NCBI GenBank assembly: GCA_008632985.1
Contig: QPGO01000107.1
Location: forward strand, 248,001-312,000
Length of the DNA stretch: 64,000 nt
Source: Psammoneis japonica
Taxonomy: Eukaryota
Reading direction: 5' to 3'
Of the stretch, positions 17,031 to 50,399 are shown in pieces. Positions within the stretch are counted from its first letter, which is position 1, and each line of letters starts with the position of its first letter. The position numbers were made by a program, and so were the translations under genes. The notes under the pieces are model-generated. The model made no database searches. It saw nothing but the letters and a program-made list of their open reading frames with translations, and had not been told where the DNA came from.

Positions 17031-17051
17031 TTCTGTGGTGTGCATGCACAA

Positions 17052-25400: not shown

Positions 25401-25833
25401 TCCTCGTGATGGGATCGCCACCCAAGAGCGGAAATGTCATCATCAAACGGTGGTGACCATGGTTCATCGCTTCTGTCATTTTTGTTGTTGGGGACCCAAG
25501 CCCAATGTTCGCTGCAGACGCACCTCGTCTGGACCGCCTCAGCCGTGGCTGTGACGAGTCATCTGATGAGGAGGAAATGTCGAGATCAACCGACCCACGT
25601 CTGCGAGAGAATTGGTTGCCAACATTGGAAGTTTTAGCCGCAACCCTTGCTGACAACTCTGGCATTGGGCAGTTTGTGACTGCCTCGCGATGTGACAAGT
25701 TGGACATCTCTTGAGCAAATGAAAAACACAGCGGGCAGTGATGGAAATGGGTGAGCATCCGTTTGAAGGATCGTTTGCAACGGGGACATGCCGCCACACC
25801 ATCCCCACCCTGCCAACCACCGTTTCCTTCCAT
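22410..25833 (-). pseudogene. Plavaka transposase
   Basis: TIYVDKT..GEPV..WRVLGCIPDL..CHKVLATMLQPL; INGDAKSGDCLVGRC; DMMHLFENG; GWKLQKLHELLH..NFDAGLGE. Broken by stops and frameshifts. Confidence 0.82.
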
Positions 25834-25892
25834 TCATTGCTGCAGCAGGTTTGTGGGCTACCCAAACACATGTGTGTTCAAAATGGCAGCAC

Positions 25893-27611
25893 CGGTTCAG
25901 TTCGTGAACAGTGAGACAGTTTGGGCGGCAAGGAAGGAAAAAACGACACAAATTGGCGCGAAAACATGGGTGCATTGTGCTCTTCCCATCAATGAAAACA
26001 TCAACAGGTGAGAATGAATCAAGGTGCGTTGGGATCATTGACAACTTTGAGCATGAACAACTGATTGCAAAGGTTGTTTTTCTACGGAAAGGAGAAAATA
26101 AGTTGTGACGTGATAAGCCGTGATGTGTTACAGCGAGAAGTCCAGGAGGGGTGCACCCACACCCACTGCAGCACCAGACACAAACGTTGCAATCAACAAT
26201 GAATGCTGTTGCACAAAATGACCGCTTGATGGCACATTGGCCAAACGACCACTGGAGGAGATTTGAAAGTTTGACAATCATGACGGCAGATGGAAGGCAA
26301 CAAATCATGGAATCGGAGCACGAGGCGGCTTTTGATGAATTGGATCATTTGACAGAAAGTTTGCCACAAGGTGGATGGTGCTTTCTGATGACACGGGCAC
26401 AGCTTTGATCGAGTTTGAGAGCGGCACACATGCGGTTGACCCGCACCTACGCCGTGACGCGATGGACCTGCATCGCATGATGAATGAGGACGACATCGAA
26501 GGGAGGTGGCAGGAACTGTGGAAGCAGAGGTGCAACTGCATGGTTTGGCTGCACGAACATGTGAGTGATTGGAGCACAGAAGCAATTGAGTGCATGCACG
26601 CCAGCACAGGCATGATCTCAATTCACGACAACCTGAACTGGTTGAATGGCATCGTCAACCGTGGGATTGATGCCCACCATTGCCCGGAGCATTGGGACTG
26701 CGTCGCGACTCACCAAGACAGGCAAGGAAGGATGTGCTGTGTCTGCAGTGCTCTGCACAATGAAGGAGAGAAAGAGCTGAGGGATGAATTTGCAGTGGGT
26801 GCGTGTGATGATGCAAAACTGGCCATTGACAGGGGAGACATTTCGAGATTGAGACGGAATTCGAGCGTCAGCATGCCGACCTGTGGCATGGACGAGACAG
26901 GCACTTGTGGACCGTTGGGAGAAACATCAGCAAGGGGAGGCACATGCGGACTTGTAATGGACAAGAAGGGAGTTGTTTACGATGCATTAAAATTGGCGAA
27001 GTGGTTCCAGCGTGACATCGTGCAAAGACAACCATGAAAGACTTTGGCTCTGTGAGCAAATGGAGTTCTTCAGGTCATCTCCAGGGACAGTCAATGAATG
27101 GATGCTGGACATCATCCGGAAGGAGGATGGTGAGCGGGAGAAATTTCAAAGCAGGAGAAAGGAAAAGCGTTGAGTGGAGAGACGTCGTCGCGTTGAAGTT
27201 AACGAATTCGTGAGAATGGTCGGAGCGGAGACGAGGGCTTTCACCCACATGACTGACTGTTCCGACAGCGGGCGACACATCAGGTTTCGAGTTACGAAGT
27301 TAGAGGGTGATGACCATTTGGACTGGAAAAAACGATTTGGCGCCAAAAAGGATGGATGTGCTTGGGCCCCAACAGCGAACCAGAGTGACGTTAAAGCAGG
27401 TGAGGGGTGTGTTCATTGCAGTGAAAACAACTTTTACAGGCACACGTTTCACAATGATGTTTTGAACAAAATGCTTTTGCAAGCAATTTGCACCATGGAA
27501 GTGGATTTCGAAATTGCAGCAAAAGAGAGGTTTGAACTGGAATTCGCAATGATTCAAAATTTTCACAAGACAACAAGGAGTGGCAAAATGAACAAATTGT
27601 GTGCCATTTAA
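25893..27611 (+). pseudogene. Further Plavaka cargo ORFs of unknown function
   Basis: Protein-like ORFs 26151-26408, 26375-27037 and 27174-27611, divergent from the transposase and inside the TIRs. Confidence 0.4.
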
Positions 27612-27762
27612 AAATTTGGTTAATTCTCCATTGTGTTGCATTGGAGAAAAAGGAATCATTGTTGGCAACTGTGAGATTTTTAGCATTAAAGAGAGGTTTG
27701 AAAATTTTCCAACGGCGAAAACAACTGGGACACAAGGCATGGAGCCACCCACAATTGGCAAC

Positions 27763-28994
27763 AATGGCAAGGAATGAGAAGAAAGGAACTGTGGGGGTGG
27801 CTGGAGATCAACCAACAAGCCCAAGGCCAGCTGCAGCATTGGTGCGGGTGGGAGCCACTGGCGATCACCAGTCTGTGAAGAGAGAGGTAGAAGAGGTGGC
27901 ACAGAAGGAACTTTTCCCAAAGGCAAAATTCCTTGTCAAGGCAGACATGGCAAGCAGTGGCAAAGTGTCGCGGCTCATCAGGAAAAAGATGGCCGGAGGC
28001 AATTGCAGCAAGCGAGAATGGGCGGGAGCGTGGGAAGACTGGGCAAAGAAGTGCGTCATGCATGCAATTGATGCAAAAAGGAGCACGGTCACTCAGGCGA
28101 TCAAGAACAATGCAACGGCTGGTGGCAAGTGTTTTGTGGTGCATGGCATGTTGAGTTTAGTTGCACTTGACACAGCTGCACCTTTGTTTGCTGAAGTCGT
28201 GTTGACAGAGAATGAAGCAGAGGAGATGCGCAGTCAGAAGGAGCCAGCAGCAAAGGGTGGACGTGGGAAGAAGAGCAAGAAGAGGAAGAAGAATGATTGC
28301 ACGGAAGAGGAAGAGCCGTTCCTGGTTGACTTGGGGGGAGGAGACAGTGACAACGATTGTGGAGGACAAGCGCAAGAACAAGGAAGCACATGCTTGGTTC
28401 TACGAAAACATCCTGAAATTCACAAAGAGCACCACCACATGGAGAAGGAAGGCAGAGTCGGGTGAGATGAAGGCAACCGGTCTGGCTGCAGCGAGCAACG
28501 AGGCTCTAGCGCTGTTGACATTGGAAAACTGCTGGAAGAGTTGGGAGCACAAGGCACGTCATGACAAGACTGTTGCAGCAGGGGGAGGTTCGGACGAAGA
28601 AGATGAGGAAGAGTCAGAACCAACACCCAAGTGCACGGACCCGTCGAGGCAACGAGACTCCTGGAAGGATGCAGGGATCAAGCGATTCAATGAACTGATG
28701 GCGGAAGTAAAGAAAGACAGGTTCAGTGAGGAGGGCATGCAGTTCAACACATGGTGCAGCGAAGGCAAGAAAAGGAAGAGTGACGAAAGAGGCAAGGGAT
28801 CAAAAAGAAAGAAAAAGCCGGTGGAGGAGGCAAGAACACAGGCAACGACAGAGCTTTCAAGTGACGATGAGGAGAAGGAGGAAGAGGTGACGGACGAGAA
28901 CAGAGGAGACAAGGACAGCGAGGAAGAGGAGGAGGAAAGTGATGCGGGCAGCGATGCGAATGTAGATGCAGAGGATGAGCGAGCTGCGGTGTGA
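27763..28994 (+). pseudogene. Plavaka-associated accessory protein with acidic tail
   Basis: KELFPKAKF..; EALALLTLENCWKSW..KCT..WKDAGIKRFNELMAEVKKDR, a motif set I associate with partner genes of these transposases. Confidence 0.65.
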
Positions 28995-29761
28995 AAAGGT
29001 GGCGGAGGCTTTTGTTGGTGTGACAATGGAAAGAGGACAAGCAATGCAGTGGGTTTCAATGCTGACAGTTATGAGGTTTAATGAAGTGTTTTGGGAATCG
29101 TTGGTTTGTGACATAACCTTTCGTTTGCCAACCAGTGCACACAATGGAACCAGTGCATGCAACACAAGGTTCTTAAACCAATGCAACGCAATGATGGCAT
29201 TAATTTGTCATCAACTAAAACATTGTGAACATCGCTTTCAAAAGGTAAAAAGTGACGGAATTCTGATGGTCAAGGGAGGGGTCCCACAGGTAAAGGAGGG
29301 GTCCCATGGTGAAAAATGGCACACTGTGACATGCAACAAAAAATCACGTTCTACACAACTCTCTCAAAAGGACACCTTTACATTTACACGTGCAATGGCA
29401 TTAAAAATTGCCCACAAGAAGGGTGGTCAGGATCACCATGTTTCGCGCTCTGATGTAGAGAGAAGAAGTGGGAGCTAGATTGGGGATTTGCAATGGGCAA
29501 GTCTGATCACAAGTGCTTTCTCTCTCTCTGGAGAGCTGCTGCACGAAGCGCAGTTGGACGCAGCAGGAACTGGCGCTGTTGGCCTCCAAGAGCATTGAAA
29601 AATGGCCCTGTTTTAGGATGGTTGCTGTCCAAACAGTTGCACTTTAATGAAAAAGGTGCAGCTTGTGCTCAAAAATGTTGCCCTGCAGTCTTCATCTTGG
29701 ATCGCACTCTGTTGCCCTGCCACAAGCTGCAGAAAGCAGTTTGTCCAGAGCACGAAAGAGC

Positions 29762-30460
29762 TCAATGGTGTGAGCCAACTGTTTCTCTGTTTCCCTCCCC
29801 TGAAACACAGAGTTGACATTTTAAGCTGTCTGACCACTCCTCCAAGCATGCTTGCGCAAGAGTCAGCAGTGGCTTGGGGCCCTTTCTTTGCCAGAGCATG
29901 AGGTTTGGGGTCAGAGCATTGGGGGCAGTCACTCCAGTGCTGTGTGAATTGCTTGTTGTGGAGCTGGGGGGTGTTTGCTTGTCACCCCCAACTTTGACTT
30001 TGATGTGTTGAAATGTTGTCACAAGGTCTTTGAGGAGCAGATGCCATTGGAGCATTTGTCGTGCATTTGGTGCTCTGAACATCACTTTTTTGTGTTTGGC
30101 ACAGACAGCAACATCAGCTCCAAGCAGCACAGATTGAAACTTCTTGAAACAAAGGACAACAGAGAGCATTTCTTTGTCCACAGTTGGGCAGTTCATTTGC
30201 ATGCTGTTGAGTTTGCGGACCAACACATGATCAACTTGCAGCTCTGTGGGCTGTTGCTGCTCCCCCAGTTGACAATCACTTGCATCTGCACAAATCTGAA
30301 CAGGAAGGTTGTGGTCAGGACTGGCAAGCAGCATGTCACCTTCACCTGTGCAGAAGTGCTTGTCCAATCACTTGGGCAAAATTGTGAGGCTGTTTTGTGC
30401 AGAACACATGCACATGCAATGGCAAGACATGTGAAGCTTGAAACCTTGTGCAGATTCAAT
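29762..30460 (-). pseudogene. Old Gypsy RT/RNase H relic
   Basis: LLASPDHNLPVQICADASDCQLG..RKLNSMQMNCPTVDKEMLSVV..LLGA. Confidence 0.8.
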
Positions 30461-31699
30461 CACAGGCAGTGCTGTGCAGCTCCGTCCCACACAGCCCCTT
30501 CATGCCTGATGTGTCAATCTCAAAATGGCCAGCTGAGTCATGACTCATTTGTGCACAAACTCAGAAAACCTGCCACAGGCTCACACCACAGGAAAAGTCA
30601 CATTGCTTCAGTGCAACATTGTGCTTGTGCACAATCAGCCATCAGCTGCAGACAGCCTGCAGATGCATGAAAGCACAGCATCACCAGTGGCTGCTGAAGA
30701 GATGCCTGCTGCATTTGCTCCCATGGCAAGGTCAGCTGAGTTGCAAAAGGTCCTGCCAAAGCAGGCTGCAACCTGATGCACACTTTGCACAACCACCCCA
30801 GTGCACCCTCTTGCACACAAAGGGTGCCATTGTCATCAACTTAAACAACTGCCACAGCCAGCCCTGCACAACTGCCAGTGCCACATTTTGTCTGTTGCCC
30901 CTGCTTGATGAGCAAAAGCTGTTCTTTCACTTGCTGGTGCTCCTTTTATTCAGAGTTTTTGCATTTGTCATTCAAGTGGATCCATTTCTGCACTCTGTTC
31001 TGTGCAAGCCTGCACTTTGTGTGATGGGCAATGGACAAAATTGCATCATGCATCAGGGGCCCAAAGCTGTTGGTCCTCCTGCCAACAGATGACCAGACTT
31101 CAGTCTCCACAAATGTGTGAGAGAAAAAGCACAAATCTGTTTCTTGACAAATCAGTCAGATTTGTGACAAATCCCCCCAATTCATGATGAACTGGGGGAT
31201 TTGAATGTGAACAAACATGTCCTTCATTTCCAACAAATGTCATGGGTTCAAATCAAGAACATGTCATCCCAGTGAGTTTCACATCACTCAACAAGTTGAT
31301 GACACAGCAGCACTCAATTGATGCCATCTGAAAAGCAACTGACATTCAACAGGTTGACTTGTTGATTCCTCAACTTCTGTTTTGGGGTGCATCTGTCAAA
31401 ATCATTTCCAATCTCTGGTTTGCATTGCAATTTTCCAATTGAGTTTTGCTCTCATTTTGCACAATGCTGCTGCTGCTGTGTGGTTTGCATCTGCCAAATC
31501 TCCATCAACTCCAGTTCATGTGCCTTGGTGCATTTAACCACATGATTGCATTCACTGTCAGACTTGTCATTCCCACCCTCCCATTGTTTTCTGTGGTTCG
31601 CCACAATCTTCTTGTGCAAATCCTCCCATCAGCCCAGCCACTCACTTGCAACATCTTGTTTGATTTCCATGACCAACTTTTCAAAGTCTTCTTTGCTTT

Positions 31700-32780
31700 T
31701 GGCAACCACCCCTGTTCTTCCTGGGTGTCTTGCTTCATCTCCTGGCTGTGCCTTCCTCTGCTGGTGCTCTGTTGGAGTTCCTTGCCATTGAGTGCTTGAG
31801 TCATCTCATGCACCTTGTCTCTTCTTGGTGCCACACTCCTTTCCTGGCAGTGCCTTGTTGCTCTCTAGTTCATTGGCAACTTCAATCAAAGTGAGCATGT
31901 GCTCCTGTGTCTTCTGCTCTGTTTGCACCTTCTTGATGTTCTCATTGCAACTTTTGTGAGACTTCCAACTCTCTTCCTTGAACTTGTTTGCTGGCTCCTG
32001 CACCATTCCTTGTTCTGCAGGCTCTTCTGGGTCTTTCTTGAACAATGTTTGTGTGCTCGAGTTGTTGTCTGCATTTTCATGCTCTGCAACAGCCAGTTCT
32101 GTCATGATGCATTCACAAAAGCAAGCCCTTCCTTCTGGTTGGGTTTTTTCATTGTCAATCTCCACGTTGCAGTCTGACATCAACATGCTGTCCATGTTGT
32201 TGCTCTTGCACTCTGCGTGCCACACATCAAAGTTGTTCTTCATCAGGAGCATGTGGGCAAACACTTTGGCACGCAACATGCCCATCCTTTTTGTGTCGTC
32301 ACATGGGCTCCTTTTCCAACAATTCTCTCCTGCAACAGGTCTCAACAGCCAGAGGTGGTTGCAGGATATCACGTGCAATGTTGGGTTTGACAAGCGCTCC
32401 TGGAATTGTTCTGTCAACGGCAAGATGCAATTTTTTTTTTCATCTGCCATGCACACTTGCTGTAACATCTGTCCTGCTTGCTGAGCCTCCTGACAAGCAT
32501 TGGATCACTTTAGCACCAGCCACTCCTGATGCAACCTGTTTTGTTTAATCTTCATCCACAGGAAATGCAGGTGTGAAGTTTGTTGCACCTCTGCAAGCTC
32601 TGAAAGCATCCCATCCATCAGCATCAGTCCACAGCTCTGGGCACAGTCTTTGCACAGCATTCCCGTTTCCTCTGACTGCCTTGCATCAAACACAAATGTG
32701 ATGCTGAGAAACACCTTTTCTTTCACATGGTCTCTCACCTTGATGACATCACGGCCCACCTTGTCCTTGTTGGCCATCCA
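31700..32780 (-). pseudogene. Degenerate second Plavaka accessory-gene relic
   Basis: DHVKEKVFLSITFV and VFAHMLLMKNNFDVW resemble 27763-28994. Confidence 0.4.
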
Positions 32781-32799
32781 TTGAGCTGGGTTGATTTCT

Positions 32800-33052
32800 T
32801 GTGATGCAAGACTTGGATCACAGTTCCGCTCCTGCCACCAAGAATGATGTTGCCAGCAGAAGACACGTCATTTCCGAAGAACACCTGATAAAATCCGTCT
32901 CCGTGGCGGCAGCAGCATCCATCACCGCACTTGTGTGTTAGATTCATTTGGCACTCTGAACCACATGCAACATGGAACGTTTCTGTAAGGAACTGAAGCT
33001 GGATGTTGTAAGTACCTTCTGCAACTGCGGCACACACTGGCATCAACAACAT
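32800..33052 (-). pseudogene. Fragment of an extracellular GDGxCC-type domain gene
   Basis: CGDGCCCRHGDGFYQV, consistent with YGDGxCCxYGxGxYxV after Tyr>Cys/His change. Confidence 0.45.
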
Positions 33053-35071: not shown

Positions 35072-38000
35072 ATGCCCACTTCGACCCTTGAGGCACCAAT
35101 CATGAAGGCGTCTAGGGCGCCTTCTGCCATGAGTGGCGACAAGTCTGCAATCAAAACGTTTGACGCGTTTCAAGACAAAAAACAAGACAAGCCGTTTCAT
35201 GGATTGGAGGAACGTCATGTGGATGGATGCCACCTCAGGACACTTGTGATGCGCTCCAGCAAGTTCTTGTCGGGTGAGCCCATCTGTCGGCACGACAATC
35301 CCTCCAACGGGCTAGTGGGAATTGACGGAAAGCAGCGAATTTTTGGAAAGGTCAAAGAAGCGCTGAAAATGAAATTCCCCAAGCACCCTGATTGGGAAGA
35401 CGAGGACAAGTGGCACAAGCCTCTGTTCAAAGATGTGGCAAAGGCCACTGACAAAGCCAACCTCCTCAGCATGGAGCTGCACTGTGCTCGAAGAACGAGT
35501 GTAAACGAAAGTAGAGTGGTGCACGAAAAGTGGAAATTATAAGATTGAATTTTGCTCTGTGATTTTTGGTTTCTCCGAACGAGTTCTCAATGGCCCAAAG
35601 CTTCTGCACTGCTTCTACAGACAAAAGGCCTTTCGGAGAATACATTCGTGACAACAGATTGTCTGGATACGATTGCTGTTGACACGTAAGATGTCAACAT
35701 CGTCAATCGATCGTATTTGCAATTCTCGACATCCGATCAACTCTGTGTGATCGTTCTGTCCTTTGTGCGCATCCACGACTGTGGTGCGATTGACACGCAA
35801 ACAACACATGATCACAAATGTGTGTGCAACAGTCGCACGCTGCATTCGCCTCCCTGATTGCACATTAGAGTCATTTGTAAGTGGATTGTTCGACGGACAT
35901 CGACAGTGTCAACAATGTCTCCACTTTCACTGCATTGTGCCATTGGCAATGACTGTTGTTGTTTTGCATGGGCAATGTGGGGCCGTTCCAATTTCCGAAT
36001 GTCTTTTGAGAGTGACATTGTTTGTTTCTCACTTAACATGCATGTGCACAGCATTACGTCGAGCATTCTCATTGACGTTCTTGTTGACATGAACACAAGG
36101 ACTAATTGTCCTGGAGTGAGTGTTTTTCCTGACATCGATTGCACATGGCATCGTGCCCAGCACTTAATGTGCGCTCTTAATTGTGGCGTTCACTTGCTCA
36201 CTTGTGGATTTCATGTAGTTTGGCGGGCTCACTTTGTGTGCCGTGTTGCTCTGCTGCACTGCCACGTTTCATAAGCAATGACAAACGATGGTCAAAGATG
36301 TTGTGACCATTTCGTCTTGACAATCAATCCTGTGATGGTCACGAATTCCATTGTGGATTTTTTTTTTTTTTGTGCTTCAACCATCCATCAGTTGGATTTT
36401 AATCGTCATTTGGACGTTTCTTTCTGACATGCCGGTGTCATTTTGTCATTCCGAAGGCACTGGTTTCGTGCACTGAGTGGGTGAATGTCCATTTTTCTTT
36501 TCTTTTTCTAGATCTTTGGCACATCTCGTGTGTCGACATGATGCACATTTTAATGTCTTGCCTCGTACATTGTACAATGCAACCGCACGGGTGTTGTGAG
36601 ATTGTCTTTTGCCAGTGTGAAGTGGACACGTACAATGTGTGCCAATCTGTCACTGTTTTTTCCTAAATCGTCCTTTAAAAAGGCGATTTTATCCTTGTGA
36701 CATGAGCATTTTTTCGATCTCGCTCGCCTCCACGAAAAGTGTTCGTATGATGTGTCGCGTCCGACAATTTGGAGGGAATGTCTTTGTCCCGTTTTAACGG
36801 CAGGACATTGTCGTGGGATTCAATTTTCCACAGTGAGTCGGCTGATCGCGTCTGTCGCGACGATGTTCGCCTTGCCCTCGTTGTGCTCTAATTCGGGACT
36901 GAAGTTGTCAACGCATGACTTTGTCCGTTGTGTCTTGTGATCCGTGTGTGCACAAATCTGTTGGCCGAACAGCATGTTTCGGAATTTTATGAGTGTTTTC
37001 ACTGTGGACAGAAGTTCTTTTTTCCGTTGTAACGCACAACATTGAAATCCGTGCATGATGACAACATGGTTTTTGATTTGATGCGCTCCACATTTTCGGA
37101 GACTTTTCGTTCCGCACTTGTGCTTTTGCCGTTTGACCTTTGTTGAGGTGAATTTGGCCAGCATTGCACAGGAGATTGTTGAGACTGCATGTCTCGACAA
37201 CAGTGACGTATGACAACGAGATGTCGCAGTGTTCTTTACGTTTTTCTCGTGTTGCGATTGCTTGAATCGCCTCCATTTTCTCTGCAATCGATTGCATGTC
37301 GTTACGTGTGGAAGTCTTGACAGTTCATTTCAAGTTAAACAGTGAAGGACTTTTGTTGTTGGCCTTCCAAGCGACTGTTCTAGTCGTTTGAATGCCGCAC
37401 TGAGCTGTCACTTGCACAGGTGACATTTTGAAGTTGCTTTTGTCAGGCACAAACGATCACACACAGTCATTCTGACAACTTCAAACCTGTCATGAGTTCA
37501 CTCAAGTGTTGCACAAAAACATCTGGGGCTCCACAGATTCTCATTGGAAGTCCACAGTGCTCATTTTCTCCCCACGGCATGATTTTCGTGTGAGCACGAC
37601 GTGTGCTTTTTTATTTGACATGGTGGCATTCCATGTTTGAATCAAATGGATTGCACACATGAAACGTTCTTGCTTCAACAGCATTTCCTGAACATTGGGT
37701 AAAGGATGCACCACCTGCACGAACCTTGTGCCAAGCTTCTGAGTGTTGGATGCGGTCGAACTCGACCTGTTTTCTTTGGACAATGAGTCTCAGAGCAACT
37801 TGTTCAGAGCAACTTCATTCTTAAGACTTCAATCTTTCACAACAGGTCAAACTCCTTTTGATTGGACGCCTCCAAAGACTGTGACAGGAGAAGGTTCTCA
37901 TGCGTCGTGGAATCGCGTCAGATTTTCCACGATGAGATCCACTGATGCTTCCCATGCATTCGTCTGAGGAACTTTTCAAAACGATTTCAACCTCTTAAGA

Positions 38001-41000
38001 AGAAGATTGAGTTGGTTGTGTTCATTTGGGTCAGATGCATCGCCGCAGTTGTCACTTGATTGAGATCGATGGCGTGATGATGTGAGTCAAGGACCATTGG
38101 TTCCGTTGTCAACTCTGTTCACGGCGTCACATTTTTCAATGTGATCGGTTTTCAGCTTGAAAACATCGGCATCGAAGAGTGCATGAACATTCTTCATAAG
38201 GCAATTGCTTCTTCCCATTAGATTTCTTCATTTGCGTAGTCCAATGTGACTTGCAGGACTGGACATTAAGTTGCGTCCCATGATCATGTCATTTGAACCT
38301 GAAGAAAATTTGGTGTTTTCAACATGTGATGTTTGAATGTCAGCATGCCTTAAATTTTGCACAGTGAGAACTGAATTCGGTGTTTGCTGTCAGTCGTAAA
38401 GAGCTCACCCTTGGTTTCCCAAGTTTTTGGTGGCGGATTCTTGTGTTCTCAACTTTCGCACGAATTTGCGCAAAATTGTGGTTGACGATGTTCCGTCATC
38501 GACAGGAACACGTAGATGCTTTTTTTTTTCTCCTTTCCCAAGGAAGTGTTCATGTGAATGATGACTCCTGGACCAGTGTGAATTATTTCTGCCTTTTTTC
38601 TAGGCTTCCTAACATCCAGCAAAGCACATGATTCGTGAACAGACCAAAATTGTTCTTCGGATTCAGTCTGGATCATCCGATCAAATTGGCATTTTCCTTC
38701 ACTGAGGGCATCAGAATCTGATTCTTTGCCCTTGTGCTCTTTTTCTTTGTTCAAGGAACTCGCTTTGAGCATTTTTTGAACCACCTGATCAATCATGACG
38801 TTCATCTCTTTTTTTGCGAGCGGCATTTTCGTCATCGCGACGCGACCGCGTGCGATTGCCATTTGAACGGCGCATTTTTGGGTCTCTTTCAGAGTCACCC
38901 TTGCACTCTTTTGCTGGTTCATTTTTAGAACAGCTTCAATCCGTGATGCAGGTATTCTTTTTTCAAAGATGAGACCTTGCATTCACTTTGGATTGTTCTG
39001 GTGCCATGTGGGAGACCATTTTTGGAACCAAATTTGGAACCTTTTTTATTTTGGAACCAACTGCGCTGTCAGAGCCTGAGTTGACATGTTTTTTCGTCAC
39101 GGACGTCATGAACGACCTTTAGATGACTCAAAACTTAATCAGCTCATCAAGGATGAGTTGCAACAGTTGATTGTTTTGGACAGTAGACTGATGCTGCCAT
39201 CCTTGCGGTGCGAGTGACAGCTGATAAATCAGCGCTCGGTTTCCCGCTAGATTCGACTTAGAATCCATCTGAGGGTCGCACAGACTCTCATCGTTGACCT
39301 CTTGGGTCTAACAGAGGCTTTCTCGCTGTCAAGCAGCTCTGGTTTCTTCAGGTCGTCTCGAAAATAATTTCCCTGATTCTGAAGTGCATTTCCTCGGAGG
39401 ACATGAGTTGTGAGACGCTTGAGGCACTTTCCAACGATTCCCTCTTGCTCCTTGGACTCGAGGATCATCGATTCGGTCTCAAAAAACTCTCCAATAGTCT
39501 CTCCTTGCATGGTAGACGCATTTCTCGGATCTGATCGACTCGGAACTTGCATTCTCTGCAACCATGACTTGGTGTAGATTTTTTGACAATGCGGTGCACT
39601 TGAGAGCCCTTGATCCTTGGGTGCTTGGAATGGACCGTGTTAAAGCGAATCCTCTTGTCTGGTAGACGAAAAACAGCGTTCCATCTTGAGGCACTGCTCG
39701 GCTTGAGCTTCTTCTGCTCGGAAATCGATTCCAGCAGAACTGATGCGATTCGTTCCTGTTCATAGAAGAATTTGCAAAGGCACATTAGTTAAAATTTTCA
39801 TTTTCCGTGCTTTTTACCTTCTGTGGTGTGTATACACAATGCACCATGCTCGAAGAACGAGTGTAAACGAAAGTAGAATAGTGCACGAAAAGTGGAAATT
39901 ATAAGATTGAATTTTGCTCTGTGATTTTTGGTTTCTCCGAACGAGTTCTCAATGGCCTAAAGCTTCTGCACTGCTTCTACAGACAAAAGGCCTTTCGGAG
40001 AATATATTCGTGACAACAGATTGTCCGGATACGATTGCTATTGACACGTAAGATGTCAACATCGTCAATCGATCGTATTTGCAATTCTCGACATCCGATC
40101 AACTCTGTGTGATCGTTCTGTCCTTTGTACGCATCCACGACTGTGGTGCGATTGACATGTAAATAACATGTGGTCATAAATATGTATATAACAGTCGCAC
40201 ACTGCAGAGCATTCTGACAAAAGGACTTTGCCCCTGGTTCCAAACGTGTCTTCAGAACATGTTCGAGCCAAGCAGCGAAATGCCATTCTTACGTCAGATG
40301 GAAATTCAATGTTGAGACGCGAGAATGGTGCACTCGCAAACGACATCGAGACGTTGCTTCTTGCTCTTGTTCTGCAATGCAATTGTCCAATGATGAATGA
40401 TGGCCCTCTTCAGCAGCGTTGCTGGATTTTGATGGGTGCTGTGGCTGCTGGACGTGGAGGGGAAGTGAGGTGTCAACGATGTGATGAATGGTTCTGGGAT
40501 TTATTTTATGAGAATTTGGAAGCAACGTGGTGTGAGCCGAAGACTGTGGATTTGTGTGGACTCCTCTTCCCACCAAACAAAAAGTCTTGTCTCTTTGATC
40601 TCTGCCATGCTTTCGCGTGTTTCCATTCTTGTGAGAAAGGTCTCTGTCGTCCAGACGGCATGGAGAAGGAGCTCCACAAGTGCACTTTTCCAGACTTGTG
40701 GAGCGTGAGCGACAAGCATGTTGCCGCCAAGTTGACGTCTGTCATTCGAAGCAAGGTCAACCCGGTTCTGCAGAACGATTGTTCTTCCAAGTCCATTCGA
40801 GTTGGCATGGCTACATTCTTGAATTCGCATCGAGGAGTGTCAGTTGAAGAAGCGGACGCTCGAGTTGGATGGGCACCCGGAGCTGCCAATGGCAAGACAT
40901 GCAAACGAATTGCACCGCAGCTTGCTCTTCCAGCAGCAAACGCAATGATGGGCTGGGATGACACCGCCGGCAAAAAATTTGCGCCAAACTTGGAATGCCT

Positions 41001-42387
41001 TGGCAGCCATGTACAAGACGACGTTGAACGTCTCATTGAAAAATTACACATGATCTCTGACTCCCTTGCTCAATTTCTAAAAGGTGGGGAGCTGCGGCCC
41101 TTCTTGCGTTCCTGCACGGCTGCTGTGATTCGGCATCACGCTGAAGTTTCAAAGGAGCTTCGTCAGAACCATCAAATCGTGTGCACCTTGGAGCGTGCTG
41201 CGAAGGAAGCGAAGATTCGTGATGGCGACACCACTGACACGTCACAAGTTCTTCGAATCTGGGGATCGAGAATGGGCGCAAGCTTTCGAGACCGCAATCC
41301 AGACCTGTCGAGCGAGATGAACCTTGCTGCACAACTGAAACAGCAGAATGAACTGTTGACATGTGTGTTGTCGGCATGTGACGCTCAACGCACCGAGATT
41401 GCAGATCAGTCTCAGACCCTTCGTAACATGGAGATGGCTCAGCTTGAGGCCAACCGGTCCAGCAGGAAAAGGCCCATTGAACTCCTGTCATCAGATGAGG
41501 AGGAAGGCAGCACGATGGATTTGGCGGATGGGTCAAAATCCAATCAAGACGACATGATCGATGGTGACGTCATTGTTGATGCAAACGTCGCCTCCACTCC
41601 AAACGGTGCGGCTGCCAACTCTGTGAGAACACCAGATGCTGCTGATGACGCGCCGGCTGCTTCTCGACCTCGCATTGATTCTGACGAGTCAGCGGCTGCG
41701 ACTGAGCCTGTGGCGGCCTCGGCGCCAAAGCCAAAACCTCGCATTGCCGCAACGCCACTCTCAACACAGTTTGCAAGCACTGAGTCTTCAAAGAAGAAGA
41801 AGAAAAAGAAGCTGACACTGCAGGAGAAAGTGGATGGCTTGGTGAGTGGTGCAGGTGCAGGAGTGTCTTTGCATGTGTTGCTCACTTGGTTCAAGCAGCA
41901 TGGACACCTTTCATTGCCGTCCAAGGAGCGGCTTTTGCAGCTGCGGTTCCCGAACAAGGAGGCAGAGCCTCAGAAATTTAAAGCCGCTGTGAAGCTTCTG
42001 GAACACATTGTGACTGATGACCAGAGGCACACGATCCAACTTCATGACGACAAGTCCTTGGCTTTTCACAATGTTTGTCATGCCATGCAAAATGCATGCC
42101 TGGACACGACGAGGAAGATGGAAGTAGACGCCGGCATGAAAAAGCCACTGGAGAACAAGAAGAAGGAACGAACTCAGCCTCACTTTGTAGGTCTTGGTCT
42201 TCGAGTTATAACGTGCAAGAAAAAGCAGAACACATCATCCATCGGCAAGAAGCAAACGAGCGCCTTGGCAGGATTTGTGAAGAAGGTTGCATCCAAAGCC
42301 ACCGGCACCAGTCCCAAAAAACCCGTGAACCCATGTGCAAAGAAGCAGGCCAAAGTAAAACATGTGTCAAGTCATTGTGTGTCATAG
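35072..42387 (+). pseudogene. Tyrosine recombinase (Crypton-like), 860 aa when Gypsy-2 is removed
   Basis: ...LLSME|HSDKRTLPLVPN rejoins in frame (35072-35477 + 40211-42387). GRGGE, SSKSIRVGMAT, ARVGW..KTCKR (expected nucleophile Tyr reads Cys, TGC 40900-02). Confidence 0.8.
35478..40206 (-). mobile_element. Ty3/Gypsy LTR retrotransposon (Gypsy-2), internally degenerate
   Basis: 367-bp LTRs 35478-35844 and 39840-40206, 4-bp TSD GAGC, PPT-like AATCAGGGAGGCGAA next to the 3' LTR, and an interior collinear with Gypsy-1 (KELLSTV..HTDHK..GKANIV.DAISR). Confidence 0.95.
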
Positions 42388-42763
42388 TCCGAATAGAAGC
42401 TCACACTGCAGAAATGTCTGTTTCAAATTTAGCACCGTGCAACTGCTGTGCGTCCGGTCGATTCAGACGAAGCAAGTGTGCTTTTCTCTCTGACGACTCC
42501 AAAAATGTGCCAATCATCATGATGTAAGTAGACCAAGGTAAAATGCATGCACAGTGAAAGAAACTGTGCATTTCAAATTTGGTTTAGTGCAACGACCAGT
42601 CGATTCGGATGAACAAGTTGAAAGTGCTTTTTTTTGCTGACAACTCTAGAACTTGTCTTCATCACGACACAAGCAGGCCAAAGTAAAATGCAACTGGGTA
42701 AAGTAAAATGCACATCAAGTGATTGGGCGCTGCAGTGTGTTTGTAGAACCATCTGTTTCTGTT

Positions 42764-43507
42764 TCAAATTTCACTCAATGCAACGACTGTACATCCGGCA
42801 GATTCGGACGAAGCAAGCACCTTTTTCGCCAACAACTCTGACACTTGCCAATCATCTTGATGCAACATTGTGTTCAAGCTGTCCAAAACAAACTTGCAGA
42901 GATTGTCAACATCTCCTGCATCCTTGAGACTCTTCCCAGGAAAAGCAAATTCAATCCGAGCCTTCAACAAGACACCGTCACGGAACTTTGGTGCTGAATC
43001 TAGTCTGGATCGGCAGAGAGCTGATGCCACACTTGCAAACTCTTTCTCATCAGCTTGGTTTGGATTGCAAACATTTCCATTCCACCCACGCTTTGGTCTT
43101 GACTTTGGCATTGGCTTTCCGACAACGTCAAATTCAATCGAAGATCCGGTGCATGAAAATGGGGGGGTGTCCGACACGGAGAATTTGGGCGATCGGATCT
43201 TTCGAGGATGCCCTCGTTTCTTCTTCCTTGATGGTTCACCTTTGCCAGCACTGCCAAATCTTGATGACGCTGGCAGGTTTGGAGCAATGGCCACGCTCTC
43301 GAAGTCTTTTCCATCTTCGTCGTCACTTGCGCTGTCTGCAACTGTTGCGTCGTCGGCAGTTCCTCCCTCAAAACTTCGCTTCTTAACCATTCTGCCATCC
43401 ATTGCACTGTTGGCATTCAGGAAACATCTCCACAGCATCCTCCACAGTGCAGCAGGAGAAAAGGCCTTTCGCGTGAGGATTCGCGTGCGACGGTGACATG
43501 TTTCCAT
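42764..43507 (-). CDS. rusA: RusA-family Holliday junction resolvase with an AT-hook-like motif
   Basis: FDVVGKPMPKSRP..IEFAFP..GDVDNLCKFVLDSLN..DDWQVSELLAKK matches RusA DxDNxxK..DD.QV; KKRGHPRK lies upstream. Open but mutated. Confidence 0.85.
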   Translation of the reverse strand: METCHRRTRILTRKAFSPAALWRMLWRCFLNANSAMDGRMVKKRSFEGGTADDATVADSASDDEDGKDFESVAIAPNLPASSRFGSAGKGEPSRKKKRGHPRKIRSPKFSVSDTPPFSCTGSSIEFDVVGKPMPKSRPKRGWNGNVCNPNQADEKEFASVASALCRSRLDSAPKFRDGVLLKARIEFAFPGKSLKDAGDVDNLCKFVLDSLNTMLHQDDWQVSELLAKKVLASSESAGCTVVALSEI

Positions 43508-46500
43508 CGCTCATCGCGTGAGCTTTCGTGTTTCGATTGATTTTTGATTTTTTTCAAATTTCAAGACGACTCAACGCACGACTTGACGCATGACTTAACG
43601 CACTCTCACGATTCACAGCCAAGATTCAATGGACGAACTTTTTTTCCTCCGCGCGCCCCCTCCATTTCCCAACTTTCAGCCGAAAGTTGGAGCGCTTCGC
43701 GCTCCAAAAGGGGGCAACTTTCGCCGAAAGTTCGCGCTGCGTGCGAAAGTTCAATTTTTCTGGACACATGCCGCAAGCGCATCGTCTCATTGCTGTCATC
43801 GGCATGAACTGCTCCCAAGGCTGTCCAGCACTGTAGAATGAATCTTTCACAGCATTGGGACGTTTCGAGCACACCACAACAAAGCCTGTAGTTGCATGAC
43901 TGCCACACAGCTCCTCATTCCATCATTCACAATCGGGTGTGTTGATCCTTTTCTCTCGGCTCGATCGCGACAGCCACACATCGAACCACGACCTGTGAAC
44001 TGTCACGCCAGGTCATTGAGCTGGCAGTCGCCCACCAGCAGTTGCCGTAGGAGGCCGAAAAGAGAAAGGAGGATGCAAGAAGTGAGAACATCTGTGACAC
44101 AGGATTCAAGAGAGGCAACAAAATTGGAAACATCAACGCAAAAAATGGAAATGTTCTCACCGGCAATTGATGCCAAGGAAGAGACACGACAGCACCACTG
44201 AGCACCGAGAGGTGCGCCAAAGAATGCCACTGAATCCCCACCAAGCCCATTAATCAGCCTGTGTTTTTGATCCACGCTACGTCTTAAAGTGGGAGATCTT
44301 GCTGGAGGCGAAAACAAAAACTGCAATTGTTGAGTTACAGAAGCAAATTATGAGCAAAATCACAACACCAACTCACCCAATTAACCTTTGCACACATTCT
44401 TTTGTGTCTCCTGTGTGCATGTGCTTGTTGCTGCAACGGCATTTGTCTCATGCCATTGCCAGAGGCATTCATGCCATCGCGAACTGATGAAATCCTGCGC
44501 GAAGCACAAGCCCCATTGAGTGAGTTTGAATGCCAACAATTAACAACATTGTCACATGATCTTACCTCCATGACTCAGTGTCACTAAATGAGCACAGCCA
44601 ATGTGCTCAAATCCACCCAAGTGGCAAGAAATCGACACAACCGTCCAAAAATCTCCAAAATTGTCATAAAACAGCGACGCCCAACCGAAATGAGACCCCA
44701 GACTGTCTTTGCCTCGAATCTCAGAGCTGTGGTCAAACCACGCCTCACATGGACACCAATGAACAACACCAAGGCATTGTGTGGACTGAGAACCTGCGTG
44801 ATGACGAGGAAGAGCCCAGTCCGTGAGTGAGCACATTTCTGGCAAAAAACATGAAGCCATTTGTTACGAACGACAGAAACAATGGTTGTGCCACAAGAAA
44901 GACAATGCCATTGCAAGGCAACAACGAAAATGTGCGTGAGTTTCCATGTCATAACTTGCAGGGCGCAACGGAGCGGAACATGCGACGACAATCAACGACA
45001 CATGTCAGCACCTGCCGAAAAAGTGACGATTTTGCACTTGGTCAGTCTCGGGGATAAATCAATCAAACATCCACCAATTTTCTCCGTTCCAACACCATGG
45101 CACGCTTCAACAGCGAGCATCCGAACAACCACTGAACGGTGCAAGGCATGGCGGTCGATGTGCCGATGAAATCGATCATCGTCGGAACGGCCCATTTTCT
45201 GGTGTGTTTTGTGTGGAAAGCTCTGTAGAGCATTTCGCCAAATCCAGGGAGGCATGGCAACAAATTTTGAGCCACCGTCCGTCTCACTTCCGTGAGAGTC
45301 TATGAGGAGACCTTCGGGTGCGTGCGAGCGCGCGCGTGAAGAACGGTCGACGCATGGACTCACGATGGAGAGTGGCGCAGCCAGGGCAGTGTACGCTGCT
45401 TCATGAGCGTCTCAACCAAATGTCTGTGGGTCAAAATGTGCTGAGCTGAGCCATTCTTCTGAAGTTGCTGACAAAGAGAAATGACATGACAGTTTTGTGC
45501 AAAGAAATGTGTGGCCGAACACAAGAAAAACAACGATGAAAATGACAGCTGCATCACATGAGTCGAGCAGAGAAAAATGCCGGGACAAAACATTTTCTTG
45601 CCCAGCCTGTGCGGAAAAAATTGGCAAGATCTGTTTGGTCATGTGAACAGATTGCTGCTGATGCAGTGGCAGTTCTCATCATTTTTTTTGTTGTGGCATC
45701 ATTTGTCAGATGAGAAGACACACAACAAGGCAGCGAGCTGTCATGGAAAAGCAAAATGCCAAGATGCCAGCGGTGGCTCCCACTGAAAATCATGCAAGCA
45801 ATGAGGAGATGAGTGCCAATGAAGGCAGAGGAGCAGAGATTGCAGCCACTCCCAAGTCACTGGTTGTTGGATGCAGGACAAGCCATCAACTTTGTGGCCA
45901 GTTTGTTGGATGATCAAAAAAGGAGATTTGGAATGTCAAATTTGTTTGGGGCACCCAGAGACACAACCACGTGTCAAGCTGAGGGACAAGATGATGTCAA
46001 TTCAGGCAAAGGGAAGGATCTGACAAAAAAGATTTGAAAAGTGATTGAAGGCAGGAAAGAAGAAGAAGAAGAAGAAGAGCGCAAAGACAGTTGAATCCAA
46101 CAAGAGACCTTTTCAGTCAGAAGAGGCTCAGGAAAAACATGTGAAGTTGAGTGAATGTTTTGGTGAGTTGGCCACAACTCCAGATGTCAAGCAAGAGTTG
46201 TTGGTGTTTTTGTCAAATTTCCTGGATGATGTGGTTGTCAAAGATCATGTGTTGACACCAACAAACAGAGACAGCATTGTCGTGGGTTTTGTTGTCAACA
46301 AACTCAAATTGAAAGTTAGAGAAGAGCACAAACAGAATCTGGGTTGGGCAGAAGACACAAAGATGAAGAGTGTGAAGAAAAAGTCATCCCAAGTGGTGCC
46401 ATGCAAGAACCGCACTGGATGTTCATGCTCAAGAAAGAGGAAAGTTTTTCCCATTGGGGTGAGATGGTGGCAAGTTGGTTGAAAGAAAGCAAAGCAGTTT

Positions 46501-46899
46501 CAGAAGACATCCAGCTCCAAATGTGCTGTCATTTGTGCAAAGTGCACAAGTTGACAGCTTGTTTGAATCCTGAGAAGGATGAGATTGCTGCATCACTTCA
46601 TCAAGATGCAGCATCAGCTGGAAGTTTGGTGGGACCAAGGTGTGGTTGTTTGATGAGAAAGGATCAGACCATTGCTGAGTTGATTCTGTCAGCACATTTT
46701 TAGCTGGCACAACACAAATCTCACGTCAAAATGCAGCAAAGCAGCACAACACAACCACAGAAAAAGTGTTGGCGGGAAGTTGAGCAGGATTAAAATGTGA
46801 CCATCACATGAGAAAGGACCAGTGTTGAGTTGACTGTGTTGAAATTTTGTTGGCTGGTGTGACATCAATGCAACATCAAAACACAAAGTGGCACATCAC

Positions 46900-49000
46900 A
46901 GCTGCCAAAAATTGCTGAAACTTGTCCAGCATTGTTTCACAGTTGACATGTGCACATTGAACACAGAATGCAAGAAAACCAAATTGAGTGTTTGTCATCA
47001 AAAGAAAATCAATTGTGGGAATTGTGTGTTTCCCAACATTGTGCCTGGGTTGAGGAGTTCACATTGAAGGATGTCATTTTCATCTTTGTTTGCCTTTCAC
47101 ATGACATGAGTCAAGAGACTTGTGTTGTTTGACATCTGACTGTTGCAACTGCAAGGGTGAAATGGTGCCTCTTCTTGAGATTTGTGAGGTTGTCAATGAC
47201 AATGTCAAGCATGCACTGAAGGACAAAGGACTTTGCAAGTCTCATGAAACTGTCTGACTGACATGCAAGAAGGCTGGTGCATCATCTTTGATGTGCTTGC
47301 CATGGCTTTGACAAGTCTGGTCAAGTCTAAAGAGGTTTCTGTTGAACAAGAGGTTTGGCCAGCAAGCAGATGATTCCTGCAAGAGTTGTGACACCTGATT
47401 GCTCCAAAAGTGATCCAAACCTTGTCATCAAACCAGAAAGCAGGAAAATGAAACCAGCCCAAGGAACAGCATTCACAAGGCAAGTTTCTGCTGTCTGCAA
47501 CTGGACCCAACTGGAAGAAATGTCCTTTGAAGACAAGAGACAATCCACTGTGAGGGATCATCAAATTTTGTTTCAATGCATGCAAGACATTTCTTGCAGA
47601 CTGCATGATTTTGACATTCACAAATGACATTTCATCTGGAACAAACATTTTGACCATTGGAGTTTTCAATTGAACATGCAATGTTTGATCTTTTAACTTG
47701 GGTCTTGTGTGAGAAGAGGCTGCATTTGTCCATGAACAGCATCTGAGGAGAAAATCTGCACTGCACTGTGAGTTGATTAAACCAAAACAGCTGTTGACTG
47801 ACAATCAGATGTGTGCCAGTTGCAAATGTTGAGTCGCATGATTGCAGTTGCCTTTTGGTGCTTGTCATCACCACACCTGACAACTGCAAGACAACTCACA
47901 CAACAGTGCACATGTGTGTGTTTGGACTTAAATTGTTGTGCTTGCAGGTTGTCATTTAGATTCTGAGTTGCAGTGTGCAAATGTTCATTCTCAACCATTG
48001 CAACTGCAGATGAAATTGTTGCTGTTTTCTTTGCTCTTTCACTGTTAAAATTGGGGGCTGTTGAAAAAACAATTGCGACACTCATGAAACAAAGATGAGT
48101 GGGAAGGAATCAAAGTTGAGCAAAAAAGAAACAGGAAGTTCATCTTCCAAGAAATGCAAAATTGCTCCTTCTCCGCCAATGTTTCTTTGGGCAAAGAAAA
48201 ACAAAACTCAAGAGGCCATCAAGGACACAAGAGATGTGGCTGTTTGCATGTCTTGGAACCCCCTGTTGCATCAATGAACTCAATTGGTGTGCCCAACCTG
48301 GAGAGACACACTCCCTGAATCAGTTTGTTCTGGACAAAGACATTGTCAAGATTGTGAGAGAGCTCGTGGAACAGAGTCACTGAGGATTGGGTGAAGGAAA
48401 ACTCAAACCAAGCTGCCATGTTCTTCCACCCCAGCACACACTTGTGCCCTGCTGAGATTCTTGACTGTGGATGTGTGGGCCCAGCAGTTCATTTGGGAGA
48501 TGACCAAGATGAACAAATGACAGCTCCTTCTGACAATCCCCAAAAACTTTGAAAAAGCTTGATGAGAACAAGCCAAACAAGTTTCTTTAGTTTCTCCATG
48601 TGCACACAAATGAAGTCAATGAATGTCAAGCCTGTGAAAACCACTCATCAAACGATGTGAGTGTCAATGTCAAATGGCAATGTTGTTGGCATTTCCACCT
48701 CATGTGTTGTGGTTCAGCACAATGCTGGAAGTGTGTTTCTCTTGTGATTGAACCAATTCTTAAAGCACAATGTCTCTGCTCTGCTTCCAACATGACAGTG
48801 TCCAAGCATGCTGTCTTTTCAGATTTGCTCCTTTTTTCGGAACAACTCCATCCAAACAAAAAGGGAGCTCCAAAATGGAGTCACAGCCACTCTCCTCATC
48901 TAAGTCTTGAATGTGACCAAACTTCAAATCACTGTCAGTTTTAGAAGCCCCAGCACCAGGAAGCAATTTGTCTTTTTTTCTGCCAAGTTGATTGCTTTCT
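46900..49000 (-). pseudogene. PIF1-like helicase relic (probable Helitron)
   Basis: LLPGAGASKT (motif I-like, ~48950), TISSAVAMVENEHLHTA, FVPDEMSFV, PHSGLSLVFKGHFFQLGPV. Confidence 0.7.
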
Positions 49001-50399
49001 CCAGTTTTGACCCTTCTTTGATGATGCTGCAGTTGAGAACAGATGGCCGCTAAATTGAGTGATTTCATTTCTGTGCCAACATGGGGGACGTCTTCGGAAG
49101 TGAGACTGTCGAAGAAAGTTGCGTAGAATTTGCACTAAAACAGTCTGTTGGTCAGTGCAATTGGGTGTTTGGGACCTCTGGACAGATCCCACGTGTTTTC
49201 TTTTGCATGCAAACTGCACTGGGAAAACCCCCAAATGCACTGGGGATCAGACCGCCTTCAATGATCTCACTTCCAAAGATGCCCCCCAAACAATGGACAT
49301 GCAAGGAGCAGCTGAATCCGATTTGATGTAAATGTCAGACTCGTTGGTTTCACGATCATTGCCAATCTTTGTGTCAGTCATTGCCACACCTGCACCATGC
49401 TGCAATGTGAGAACAACACTTTGAGTGACAAGAAACAGGAAAGTCATGAATGGTTGCATCAGATGTTCTCAACACAAGAACAATGCATGCACCTGTTCTC
49501 AATTGATTGTCTTGATTCAAGAAGACTGCACAAACTTACAGCATGATGAGAGCTTTTAAAGAAACCACAACAAGGTGCACATTGTTTGACTTTTGTGTAA
49601 AAATGAACACAAGAATCCACACTTTGAAGGGCACAATGTGAAATGTGTGTGATTTGACTTTTGGATCAAACTGAGTGCAGGAAAGATTGTGATTGTCCGT
49701 CTTCACATTGACGCATCATGTGCATTTGTCAGCAAGACATCCTCTGAAACAGCATGCTGGTGATCACTTGCATGTTTGTCATGTCAAAACATTGTAAAAA
49801 CAAGACATGTTGCTGCAATGTGCAACCTCAGTGAAGAAATTCTCTTCAAACAACACAGTCACATCCTCACAATGCTGCAAAAAACCAGATGCATTTCTGC
49901 ACTGTTCAGTTGTGAGCACAATGGACAATGGTTGGTTGAAAACCACAGATGAGGTGCCATGTTTTGTGGTGCCAATGCACCACACACTCTAAATCACATG
50001 TCTGACACAACATCAAAGCACACACAATCTGTGTGGACAGAATTTGCAACCATGAAAATGAAGCGCAATGCTGAGGAGATCACCCTGTCAAGCAAACTGG
50101 AAACATGATGGAAGAAAAAAAAAAAGACAACGCAGCTCATGAAACAAAGCCATGTGCCATTCTGTGTCAAAGAGCAAATGGGGCACAAAGTGTGCATGGA
50201 AAACATTCCATTGTAGAAAGAGTTTATGAACACAAAAGGAGCACTGCTTGAAAATGAAGGAAAGCACCAATTGCAGTCAAATGAGTTCATGTGGTTCTGG
50301 AGGACGTGTTGCCAAAAACACAAGTTTGGCTGCAAAAAGAGAAAGTGAGACACATTGTGTCTGTTGTCCTTGTGAAGCATTGTTTGCAACTTGGCTGAT

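Follow-up and report, generated by a model that had tools for sequence, protein, structure and literature searches.

Context-dependent loss of TpA by A:T-to-G:C transitions in the repeat DNA of a 64-kb stretch of the Psammoneis japonica genome

We analyzed a 64-kb stretch of the nuclear genome of the diatom Psammoneis japonica (GenBank assembly GCA_008632985.1, contig QPGO01000107.1, positions 248,001 to 312,000; this whole stretch is called the window below), in which repeat-derived DNA, including two Gypsy retrotransposons, is strongly depleted of the dinucleotide TpA. The two elements, copy A and copy B, have common long terminal repeats (LTRs). Genic-looking DNA accounts for about one quarter of the window and the remainder is repeat-derived (Table 1). 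All evidence comes from this one window together with contigs of a sequencing run, X1, probably made from the same sample. Copy B, with its LTRs and GAGC target duplication, coincides exactly with the interval singled out in the initial annotation. It is nested in an older high-copy repeat, and one X1 contig joins 35473 to 40207, showing that copies of the host repeat elsewhere lack the insertion.

Table 1. Features of the window, with observed/expected ratios (o/e) of TA, CG and CA/TG where given
Feature	Coordinates	Strand	Remarks
Genic comparison set	1..10500		TA o/e 0.36-0.64, CG ~1.05; includes ARC5-type dynamin gene
ARC5-type dynamin gene	5703-8285		Ordinary GT..AG intron 6905-6999, TAs retained
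Gypsy copy A	11133..17430	-	Target duplication CGAG
Unconverted end of copy A	11133..12250		Left LTR and ~0.7 kb internal; TA o/e 0.69, CG o/e 1.09
Converted part of copy A	12251..17430		TA o/e 0.15; includes right LTR 17052-17430
Copy A, integrase zinc domain	13283-13708	-	pol domain
Copy A, RNase H	13712-14404	-	pol domain
Copy A, reverse transcriptase (RT)	14408-15871	-	pol domain; reading frame without tyrosine
TA-depleted repeat DNA, CpG partly retained	17431..29500		TA o/e 0.04-0.25, CG 0.6-1.0
Unnamed repeat-protein family, reading frame	19822-21534 (long frames 18484-22406)	+	53 homologs, best E 1e-118
Old relic, TA and CG almost gone	29501..33000		Several 250-bp bins with 0 TA and 0 CG
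Gypsy RNase H trace	29765-30367		Within old relic 29501..33000
Further genic stretches	33000-35000; 53500-56250		From dinucleotide profile
Gypsy copy B, complete element	35478..40206	-	Target duplication GAGC; RNase H trace, minus strand
Left LTR of copy B, converted	35478..35844		367 bp, TG..CA; 9 TAs, o/e 0.32
Right LTR of copy B, TA-keeping	39840..40206		367 bp, TG..CA; 21 TAs, o/e 0.66
Host repeat of copy B and neighbors	40207..46000		TA o/e 0.06-0.27
Old relic	46001..53500		TA o/e 0.03-0.11, CG 0.02-0.26, CA/TG up to 2.4
Old relics, TA and CG near zero	56250..64000		Broken by TA-normal island 58490-58847
Old duplicates	61086-61624/62882-63427 and 62334-62837/63417-63912		11 CA-versus-TG sites

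Across the whole window TpA o/e was 0.23, with CA at 1.51, TG at 1.50 and AA/TT at 1.16-1.25 throughout. Measured per kb, TpA o/e was 0.36-0.64 in the genic first 10 kb versus 0.00-0.37 in repeat DNA, and CA/TG o/e was raised to 1.4-2.4 in the TA-depleted repeats; GC content in the window profile was 0.42-0.53. The genic and relic partition was picked from the dinucleotide profile and is therefore circular for the amount of depletion, but not for its context. Total counts of N-YR-N tetramers per kb (Y, pyrimidine; R, purine; N, any base) were nearly equal in genic and relic DNA. The shares alone moved, from TA and CG to CA and TG, which is the expected outcome of transitions restricted to YR steps. 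Three blocks that are also TA-poor (29.5-33, 46-53 and 56-64 kb) had CG o/e of 0.02-0.3, as CpG decay would leave them.

Depletion was uneven within the Gypsy elements. In copy A, TA o/e switches abruptly at ~12250 between the two parts listed in Table 1; the left LTR has 29 TAs (o/e 0.83) and the right LTR 5 (o/e 0.17). Copy B is partly hypermutated (94 TAs, TA o/e 0.26, CG o/e 0.94). LTR twins start out identical, and those of the two elements, whose target duplications are intact, now differ; the changes therefore arose in chromosomal DNA once the elements had inserted. Between the twins of pair A we counted 24 transitions, 3 transversions and 2 gap columns, and between those of pair B 21 transitions and no transversions. 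Among the 45 transitions, 29 lie at TA-type sites and 6 more come from three CA-versus-TG sites. Compared with 2000 simulations that placed the same number of transitions at random, TA-type differences were in excess in both pair A (17 versus 5.9 expected, 0/2000) and pair B (12 versus 4.8, 1/2000), whereas CpG-type differences were not (5 versus 5.9 and 3 versus 6.1). When A on either strand was sorted by its 5' neighbor, transitions in the LTRs were found at 29/85 TA, 1/124 AA, 5/101 CA and 0/111 GA. C in CG changed at 6/88, so that, within the LTRs, CpG decay is the slower of the two processes. A full-length alignment of copies A and B was too diverged for this purpose (65% identity, 711 transversions), and the mutation spectrum was therefore taken from the LTR pairs only.

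The initial annotation described the change as strand-symmetric, and the products agree with this: LTR events yielded 17 TG and 11 CA, the two being interleaved inside 30 bp at 35798-35827, and the nearly equal o/e of CA and TG in the window points the same way, as do the histidine and cysteine replacements described below and the X1 copies, with A>G 112 and T>C 122. The sequence variants on which it drew were all located, namely ACACATG (35804) and ACATGTG (40166) in the Gypsy LTRs, CACTATG (11135), CACTGTG (35480) and CACCATG (17054 and 39842) across the four LTRs, and TGTGTATACACA (39827-39838) with its counterpart TGTGCATGCACA (17039-17050). It had also claimed that one ancestral site may resolve both ways, to CA in one copy and TG in the other. 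We found 3 such sites in the LTR pairs and 11 in the two old duplicates at 61-64 kb. The claim holds for the duplicates (6 versus 0.53 and 5 versus 0.38 expected, 0/2000 each) and for pair B (2 versus 0.21, 32/2000), but the single site in pair A is not significant (0.2 expected, 377/2000).

Where sister copies have TA, CA and TG at one site, the change could have run in either direction, and polarity was therefore tested with proteins. The RT of copy A contains no tyrosine in 488 amino acids, with histidine and cysteine raised, whereas 120 homologs have a median of 3.7% tyrosine and a minimum of 0.9%. In an alignment with 60 homologs, 266 columns had a majority residue at 60% or more, and copy A matches 196 of them; yet none of the 14 tyrosine-majority columns is kept, 7 being histidine (CAY), 5 cysteine (TGY) and 2 phenylalanine. 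The catalytic YLDD (YxDD) motif of the solved Ty3 RT aligns to HVDD in copy A, and copies A and B carry CAT and TGT, respectively, at RT codon 334. The reading frame at 19822-21534, which is unrelated to RT, has tyrosine at 3/571 positions versus 2.3-5.0% in 17 homologs; of its 10 tyrosine-majority columns 1 is kept, 3 are histidine, 2 cysteine and 4 other. Among its 53 homologs from a representative library, 12 were scanned and no Pfam domain was found in them. Among 79 related Gypsy loci from metagenomes, TA o/e was 0.43-1.18 and none was lower, although these loci were fetched with two patterns, one of which contained YY and was thus biased against converted copies. Some of these loci had CpG loss (CG o/e 0.04-0.3) with normal TA. 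Because tyrosine columns are now histidine or cysteine, YxDD has become HVDD and relatives retain TA, the TA state is ancestral and CA/TG derived, the reverse of repeat-induced point mutation (RIP). Among the compared Gypsy loci, the TA depletion pattern is specific to this genome.

Loss of TA also depended on its flanks. The distribution over the ten strand-symmetric NTAN classes differed between genic DNA and younger relics (chi2 107.7, df 9, p 4e-19) and between genic DNA and the oldest relics (chi2 134.0, df 9, p 2e-24), with the genic set serving as a baseline that is not the true ancestor of the repeats. RTAY dropped from 11.9 per kb in genic DNA to 1.15 in younger and 0.06 in the oldest relics; the corresponding values for YTAR were 4.7, 4.0 and 2.4. 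As the initial annotation had noticed, TAs surviving in old relics are largely YTAR: its share rises from 70/547 (13%) in genic DNA to 107/279 (38%) in younger and 40/60 (67%) in the oldest relics. A model in which the base 3' of A determines one loss term on each strand fits the ten classes in younger relics with R2 0.98 (TA-T 1.45, TA-C 0.94, TA-G 0.38, TA-A -0.07). With hexamers, such a +1 term rejected equal depletion of all contexts (chi2 156, df 3, p 1e-33), and a +2 term with the order T>C>G>A added further to the fit (chi2 51.5, df 3, p 4e-11). Per-context rates in the LTR pairs had the same rank, in small numbers (TAT 15/34, TAC 9/25, TAG 3/9, TAA 1/16), and TAY differed from TAR with Fisher p 0.04. 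Thus, the earlier rule that TAY/RTA is hit and YTAR spared was borne out in substance and can be refined, since the sharpest contrast is TAA versus all others, more than Y versus R. TTAA is practically immune, its density in relics being 0.8-1.3 times that in genic DNA. The exception already pointed out, CCTAAA to CCCAAA, was recovered as CCTAAA in three LTRs and CCCAAA at 35594. Judged from sequence alone, attack on A of TAY or on T of RTA would look the same, and the preference may be enzyme-like.

Borders between depleted and TA-normal DNA were sharp at the 250-bp scale (~33000, 35000, 53500, 56250, 58500 and 59000). Noncoding DNA of the genic stretches retains its TAs (intron 6905-6999, intergenic 55500-56250), so the contrast between genic and repeat DNA is not accounted for by selection on coding sequence. 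Copy number could be read in 33001-41000 only, where high-copy DNA is mostly converted: 33.0-34.6 kb is single-copy in X1 (depth 63-88) and TA-normal, and the converted 35-41 kb is high-copy (depth 580-39,000). Of the one-sided TA-type differences between LTR twins, the derived state lies in the right LTR of copy A in 16/16 cases and in the left LTR of copy B in 12/12. The CpG-type differences of pair A follow the same side, the right LTR being derived and the left keeping CG in 5/5. The converted LTR is the element's 5' LTR in copy A and its 3' LTR in copy B, so transcription polarity does not explain the asymmetry. At 43001-44000, TA o/e is 0.08 with CG o/e 1.05, so that TA loss does not need CpG loss. 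Two small patches were seen near such borders. The stretch 34603-34999, adjoining converted DNA that starts at ~35000, is high-copy (X1 depth ~3100 at 34603-34869) yet TA-normal, with 9 TAs in 34750-34999. A TA- and CG-poor patch at 10500-11000 (per 250 bp, TA 6 and 2, CG 3 and 7) sits between genic DNA and the unconverted LTR of copy A.

It is highly probable that these observations reflect A:T-to-G:C hypermutation at TpA that is confined to repeats, acts after insertion and on both strands, depends on context and is patchy. In this process, 5'-TA-3' becomes TG or CA through a transition at the A of TA on either strand of repeat DNA that has already inserted. The base 3' of the target A sets the rate (T > C > G, with about zero for A), with a weaker effect of the same order at +2. 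Conversion halts sharply at the edges of repeat tracts and is patchy within elements, such that one LTR is converted and its twin left untouched. It runs faster than CpG decay, the two not always acting together; because both feed the same products, old relics end without TA or CG and with CA/TG at about twice the expected level. Affected reading frames lose every tyrosine and are inactivated. The agent might be an enzyme acting on the DNA of silenced repeats, where it would convert adenine by deamination into hypoxanthine, a base read as G; repeats could be recognized through their homology, as happens in RIP, through small RNAs or through the state of the chromatin. A T or U before the target A is the hallmark of TadA/ADAT2 deaminases, which in nature act on A34 of tRNA, directly 3' of the invariant U33. 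The strict 5'-T found here fits this family, as a likeness in mode of action only. We favor an adenine-deaminating enzyme, though as a possible agent rather than a probable one, and the full account that includes this step is offered tentatively. About as tentative is the idea of a genome-defense mutator, in the diatom lineage to which P. japonica belongs, that mirrors RIP, with an enzyme deaminating adenine on both duplex strands at 5'-TAY of repeated or silenced DNA.

Several points weigh against this proposal, in addition to the baseline and the search pattern mentioned above. The deaminase step is one that we infer. A product rule based on flanks fails at the tyrosine codons of copy A, where YTAY gave TG 3 and CA 4, and RTAY gave TG 2 and CA 3. 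The 16:0 and 12:0 asymmetry of the LTRs, together with the 1.1 kb left untouched in copy A, is not predicted by a process that acts on all repeats all the time. In X1, places were called variable when letters other than that of the window made up at least 10% of depth; of the best-supported 40 of 652 such places, 28, located in 34206-40806, set the window against at least 94% of other copies, and these comprise 6 TA-type, 6 CpG-type, 3 CG-in-window, 10 other transitions and 3 transversions. Where the X1 copies differ from the window, the counts were A>G 112, T>C 122, C>T 168, G>A 143 and 88 transversions, and a general background of transitions is also present. Polarizing copy B against the X1 copies was given up: given subfamily structure, taking the majority as ancestral is unsafe, because the window has CG at 3 places where all other X1 copies have CA/TG. 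Finally, a 360-bp TA-normal island (58490-58847) stands inside fully converted relic DNA, and is either very young or too short for targeting. The island has imperfect inverted ends (58490-58503 and 58834-58847) and an inner inverted pair, and resembles a miniature DNA transposon. There are 28 TAs in 58500-58999, and no second copy of the island was found within the window.

Among other explanations, a modified base at the palindromic TpA of silenced repeats might miscode, either N6-methyladenine on both strands, much as 5-methylcytosine sits at CpG, or hydroxymethyl- or formyl-uracil derived from T. Hydroxymethyluracil at TpA occurs in dinoflagellates. Moreover, the erased steps are only the self-complementary YR steps TA and CG, both of which end as CA/TG, TA loss does not extend beyond the domains of CpG loss, and diatom transposons carry CG methylation according to the part of PMC9998398 that was available. 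However, the literature searched contained no report of a modified base at TpA of diatoms, TA has been lost where CpG is intact (43001-44000), and spontaneous miscoding would have to far outpace the decay of 5-methylcytosine, given the LTR rates at TA and CG. We regard this explanation as unlikely, though to be taken seriously. Less likely again is that patches opened at T:G mismatches, which arise by 5-methylcytosine deamination, are refilled by a polymerase eta-like enzyme that places G opposite T at WA (W, A or T). A-to-G at TA belongs to the polymerase eta WA signature known from somatic hypermutation, and clustering in tracts, changes on both strands and domains common with CpG decay would all be accommodated. 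The WA signature includes AA, though, and AA is hardly touched in the LTRs while AA/TT is abundant everywhere in the window; TAA is a classical hypermutation hotspot yet changes least often of all contexts here; and none of the 21 changes in LTR pair B is a transversion.

Three further possibilities can be largely set aside. Modified repeat bases could make a long-read basecaller write G for A and T for C, and run X1, the best match to the window, may indeed derive from the same sample. Yet X1 contains 59% of sampled 31-mers of 33001-41000, a stretch of which only ~20% is single-copy; 970/5083 X1 contigs on this stretch are at least 99% alike; the single-copy X1 contig of depth 63 has 2 differing letters in 1647 bases, suggesting accurate reads; and one LTR tail (loose end 35828) occurs in X1 in both its TA and its converted form. 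An assembly artefact is thus very improbable. Editing before integration, by an ADAR-like or APOBEC-like deaminase of RNA or cDNA during the retrotransposon cycle, is already largely refuted and in our view carries hardly any probability. Hyperedited retroelement copies exist in animals, and the recognizable victims in the window are retroelements. Nevertheless, the LTR twins have diverged since insertion, both T>C and A>G are seen on the sense strand, at the tyrosine codons, and lie within 30 bp of each other in an LTR, conversion deepens with relic age to zero TA, and DNA that is just as depleted carries a RusA-like frame and a repeat protein that belongs to no retroelement family; in addition, ADAR is restricted to animals according to the part of PMC3239186 that was available. 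The remaining alternative is that RIP or cytosine deamination has been read backwards, with CA/TG ancestral and the TA-rich LTRs mutated. Single sites with CA, TG and TA can be read either way (e.g., alignment column 101), but this reading needs a functional ancestor with histidine or cysteine at 12 conserved tyrosine positions, including YxDD, and TA should then rise with age, whereas it drops to 0.03. Together with the TA o/e of the relatives, the tyrosine data refute it. Ultraviolet photoproducts and GC-biased gene conversion were also set aside, because a strict TA rule and sharp borders of repeats would be expected from neither.

The TA hypermutation resembles several known systems in part. 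It shares with RIP of Neurospora and other ascomycetes the dense transitions in repeats only, a dinucleotide rule, action on both strands and sharp borders, as well as the destruction of transposon reading frames and skewed dinucleotide indices. RIP, however, changes CpA to TpA (C to T) and makes DNA AT-rich, whereas here TpA is destroyed, A:T goes to G:C and GC content stays at 0.42-0.53; the polarized changes are T>C and A>G, not C:G to T:A, and affected DNA has TA o/e of 0.03-0.3 in place of a TpA gain. Furthermore, one LTR per pair is spared, the host is a diatom, and an enzyme of the cytosine-methyltransferase type cannot make this change. Sequence duplication triggers RIP, and both copies of a repeat are then mutated; here the converted 35-41 kb is high-copy beside a spared single-copy flank, and yet one LTR of each pair is untouched and the 360-bp island is TA-normal. 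RIP depends on a cytosine methyltransferase of the RID/Dim-2 type and occurs before meiosis. Diatom DNMT4 is described as related to RID in the part of PMC9998398 that was available. CpG decay by deamination of 5-methylcytosine has the same TG/CA products and the same domains, and it also operates here, more slowly, as a second process. Its target is the C of CG and not the A:T pair, and TA can be lost without CpG loss; it accompanies the TA loss without accounting for it.

With TadA/ADAT2, fungal A-to-I mRNA editing and engineered adenine base editors, the process has in common A-to-I conversion, if adenine is indeed the base attacked, with U or T 5' of A, and T precedes the changed A here. 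The natural substrates of these enzymes are tRNA and mRNA, and we know of no natural member that acts on chromosomal DNA. ADAR hyperediting and APOBEC3 also cause clustered hypermutation that cripples retroelements, but they act before integration, on one strand and with other neighbor preferences, in contrast to the post-insertion changes on both strands seen here; A>G restricted to the transcribed strand was not observed. Polymerase eta is similar in its A-to-G changes at TA in tracts, but its changes at both AA and TA with a TAA hotspot differ from the low AA and TAA rates of the LTRs.

In the literature covered, with subscription journals and bioRxiv supplements outside the search, no account of hypermutation from TA to CA/TG came to light, for diatoms or for other organisms; the available parts of PMC9998398, PMC3239186, PMC2806351, bioRxiv 10.1101/2025.10.24.684338 and PMC12718438 do not describe it. 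Repeat-directed hypermutation of this kind appears to be new. To our knowledge, cytosine is the substrate of all repeat-directed hypermutation systems known so far. One that removes TpA through A:T-to-G:C changes in repeats only, under a sequence rule, would be independent of them in chemistry and would lie outside fungi. Such a process suggests a candidate natural enzyme with activity on adenine (or thymine) of chromosomal DNA, an activity that, as far as we know, base-editing technology had to engineer. If the mutator proposed above exists, it would erase TpA and hence every tyrosine codon as well as the stop codons TAA and TAG, and no natural adenine editor of chromosomal DNA would have been known before it. 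In this genome, the shares of TA and CG among YR steps may provide a simple index for dating and delimiting silenced DNA.

The depletion also affects annotation. TAA and TAG are nearly absent from converted DNA, and many long spurious reading frames therefore arise on both strands; 78 frames of at least 150 amino acids are listed in the 64 kb. A Pfam scan of 144 long frames (11.5-64 kb) gave 9 with any family at E <=0.01 and 135 without, and a looser scan of 8 frames gave no further family. Converted proteins lose tyrosine and evade homology detection. The frame at 40192-42384 has a single homolog, without a domain. The genic ARC5-type dynamin has its best named relatives in Chaetoceros (73% identity) and Triparma (68%), and its best, unnamed match has 83% identity. 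In the TA-depleted repeat DNA, strong strand skews were observed at 26001-29000 (GC skew +0.21 to +0.36, AT skew up to +0.40). A RusA Holliday-junction resolvase frame (42767-43510, minus strand, Pfam E 3.9e-9) also lies in TA-depleted repeat DNA. This domain is unusual for a eukaryotic repeat, and it may derive from a DNA element or a virus. A weak PIF1-helicase trace in an old relic (47208-47804, minus strand, E 0.002, under the Pfam cut-off) may be a Helitron-like remnant.

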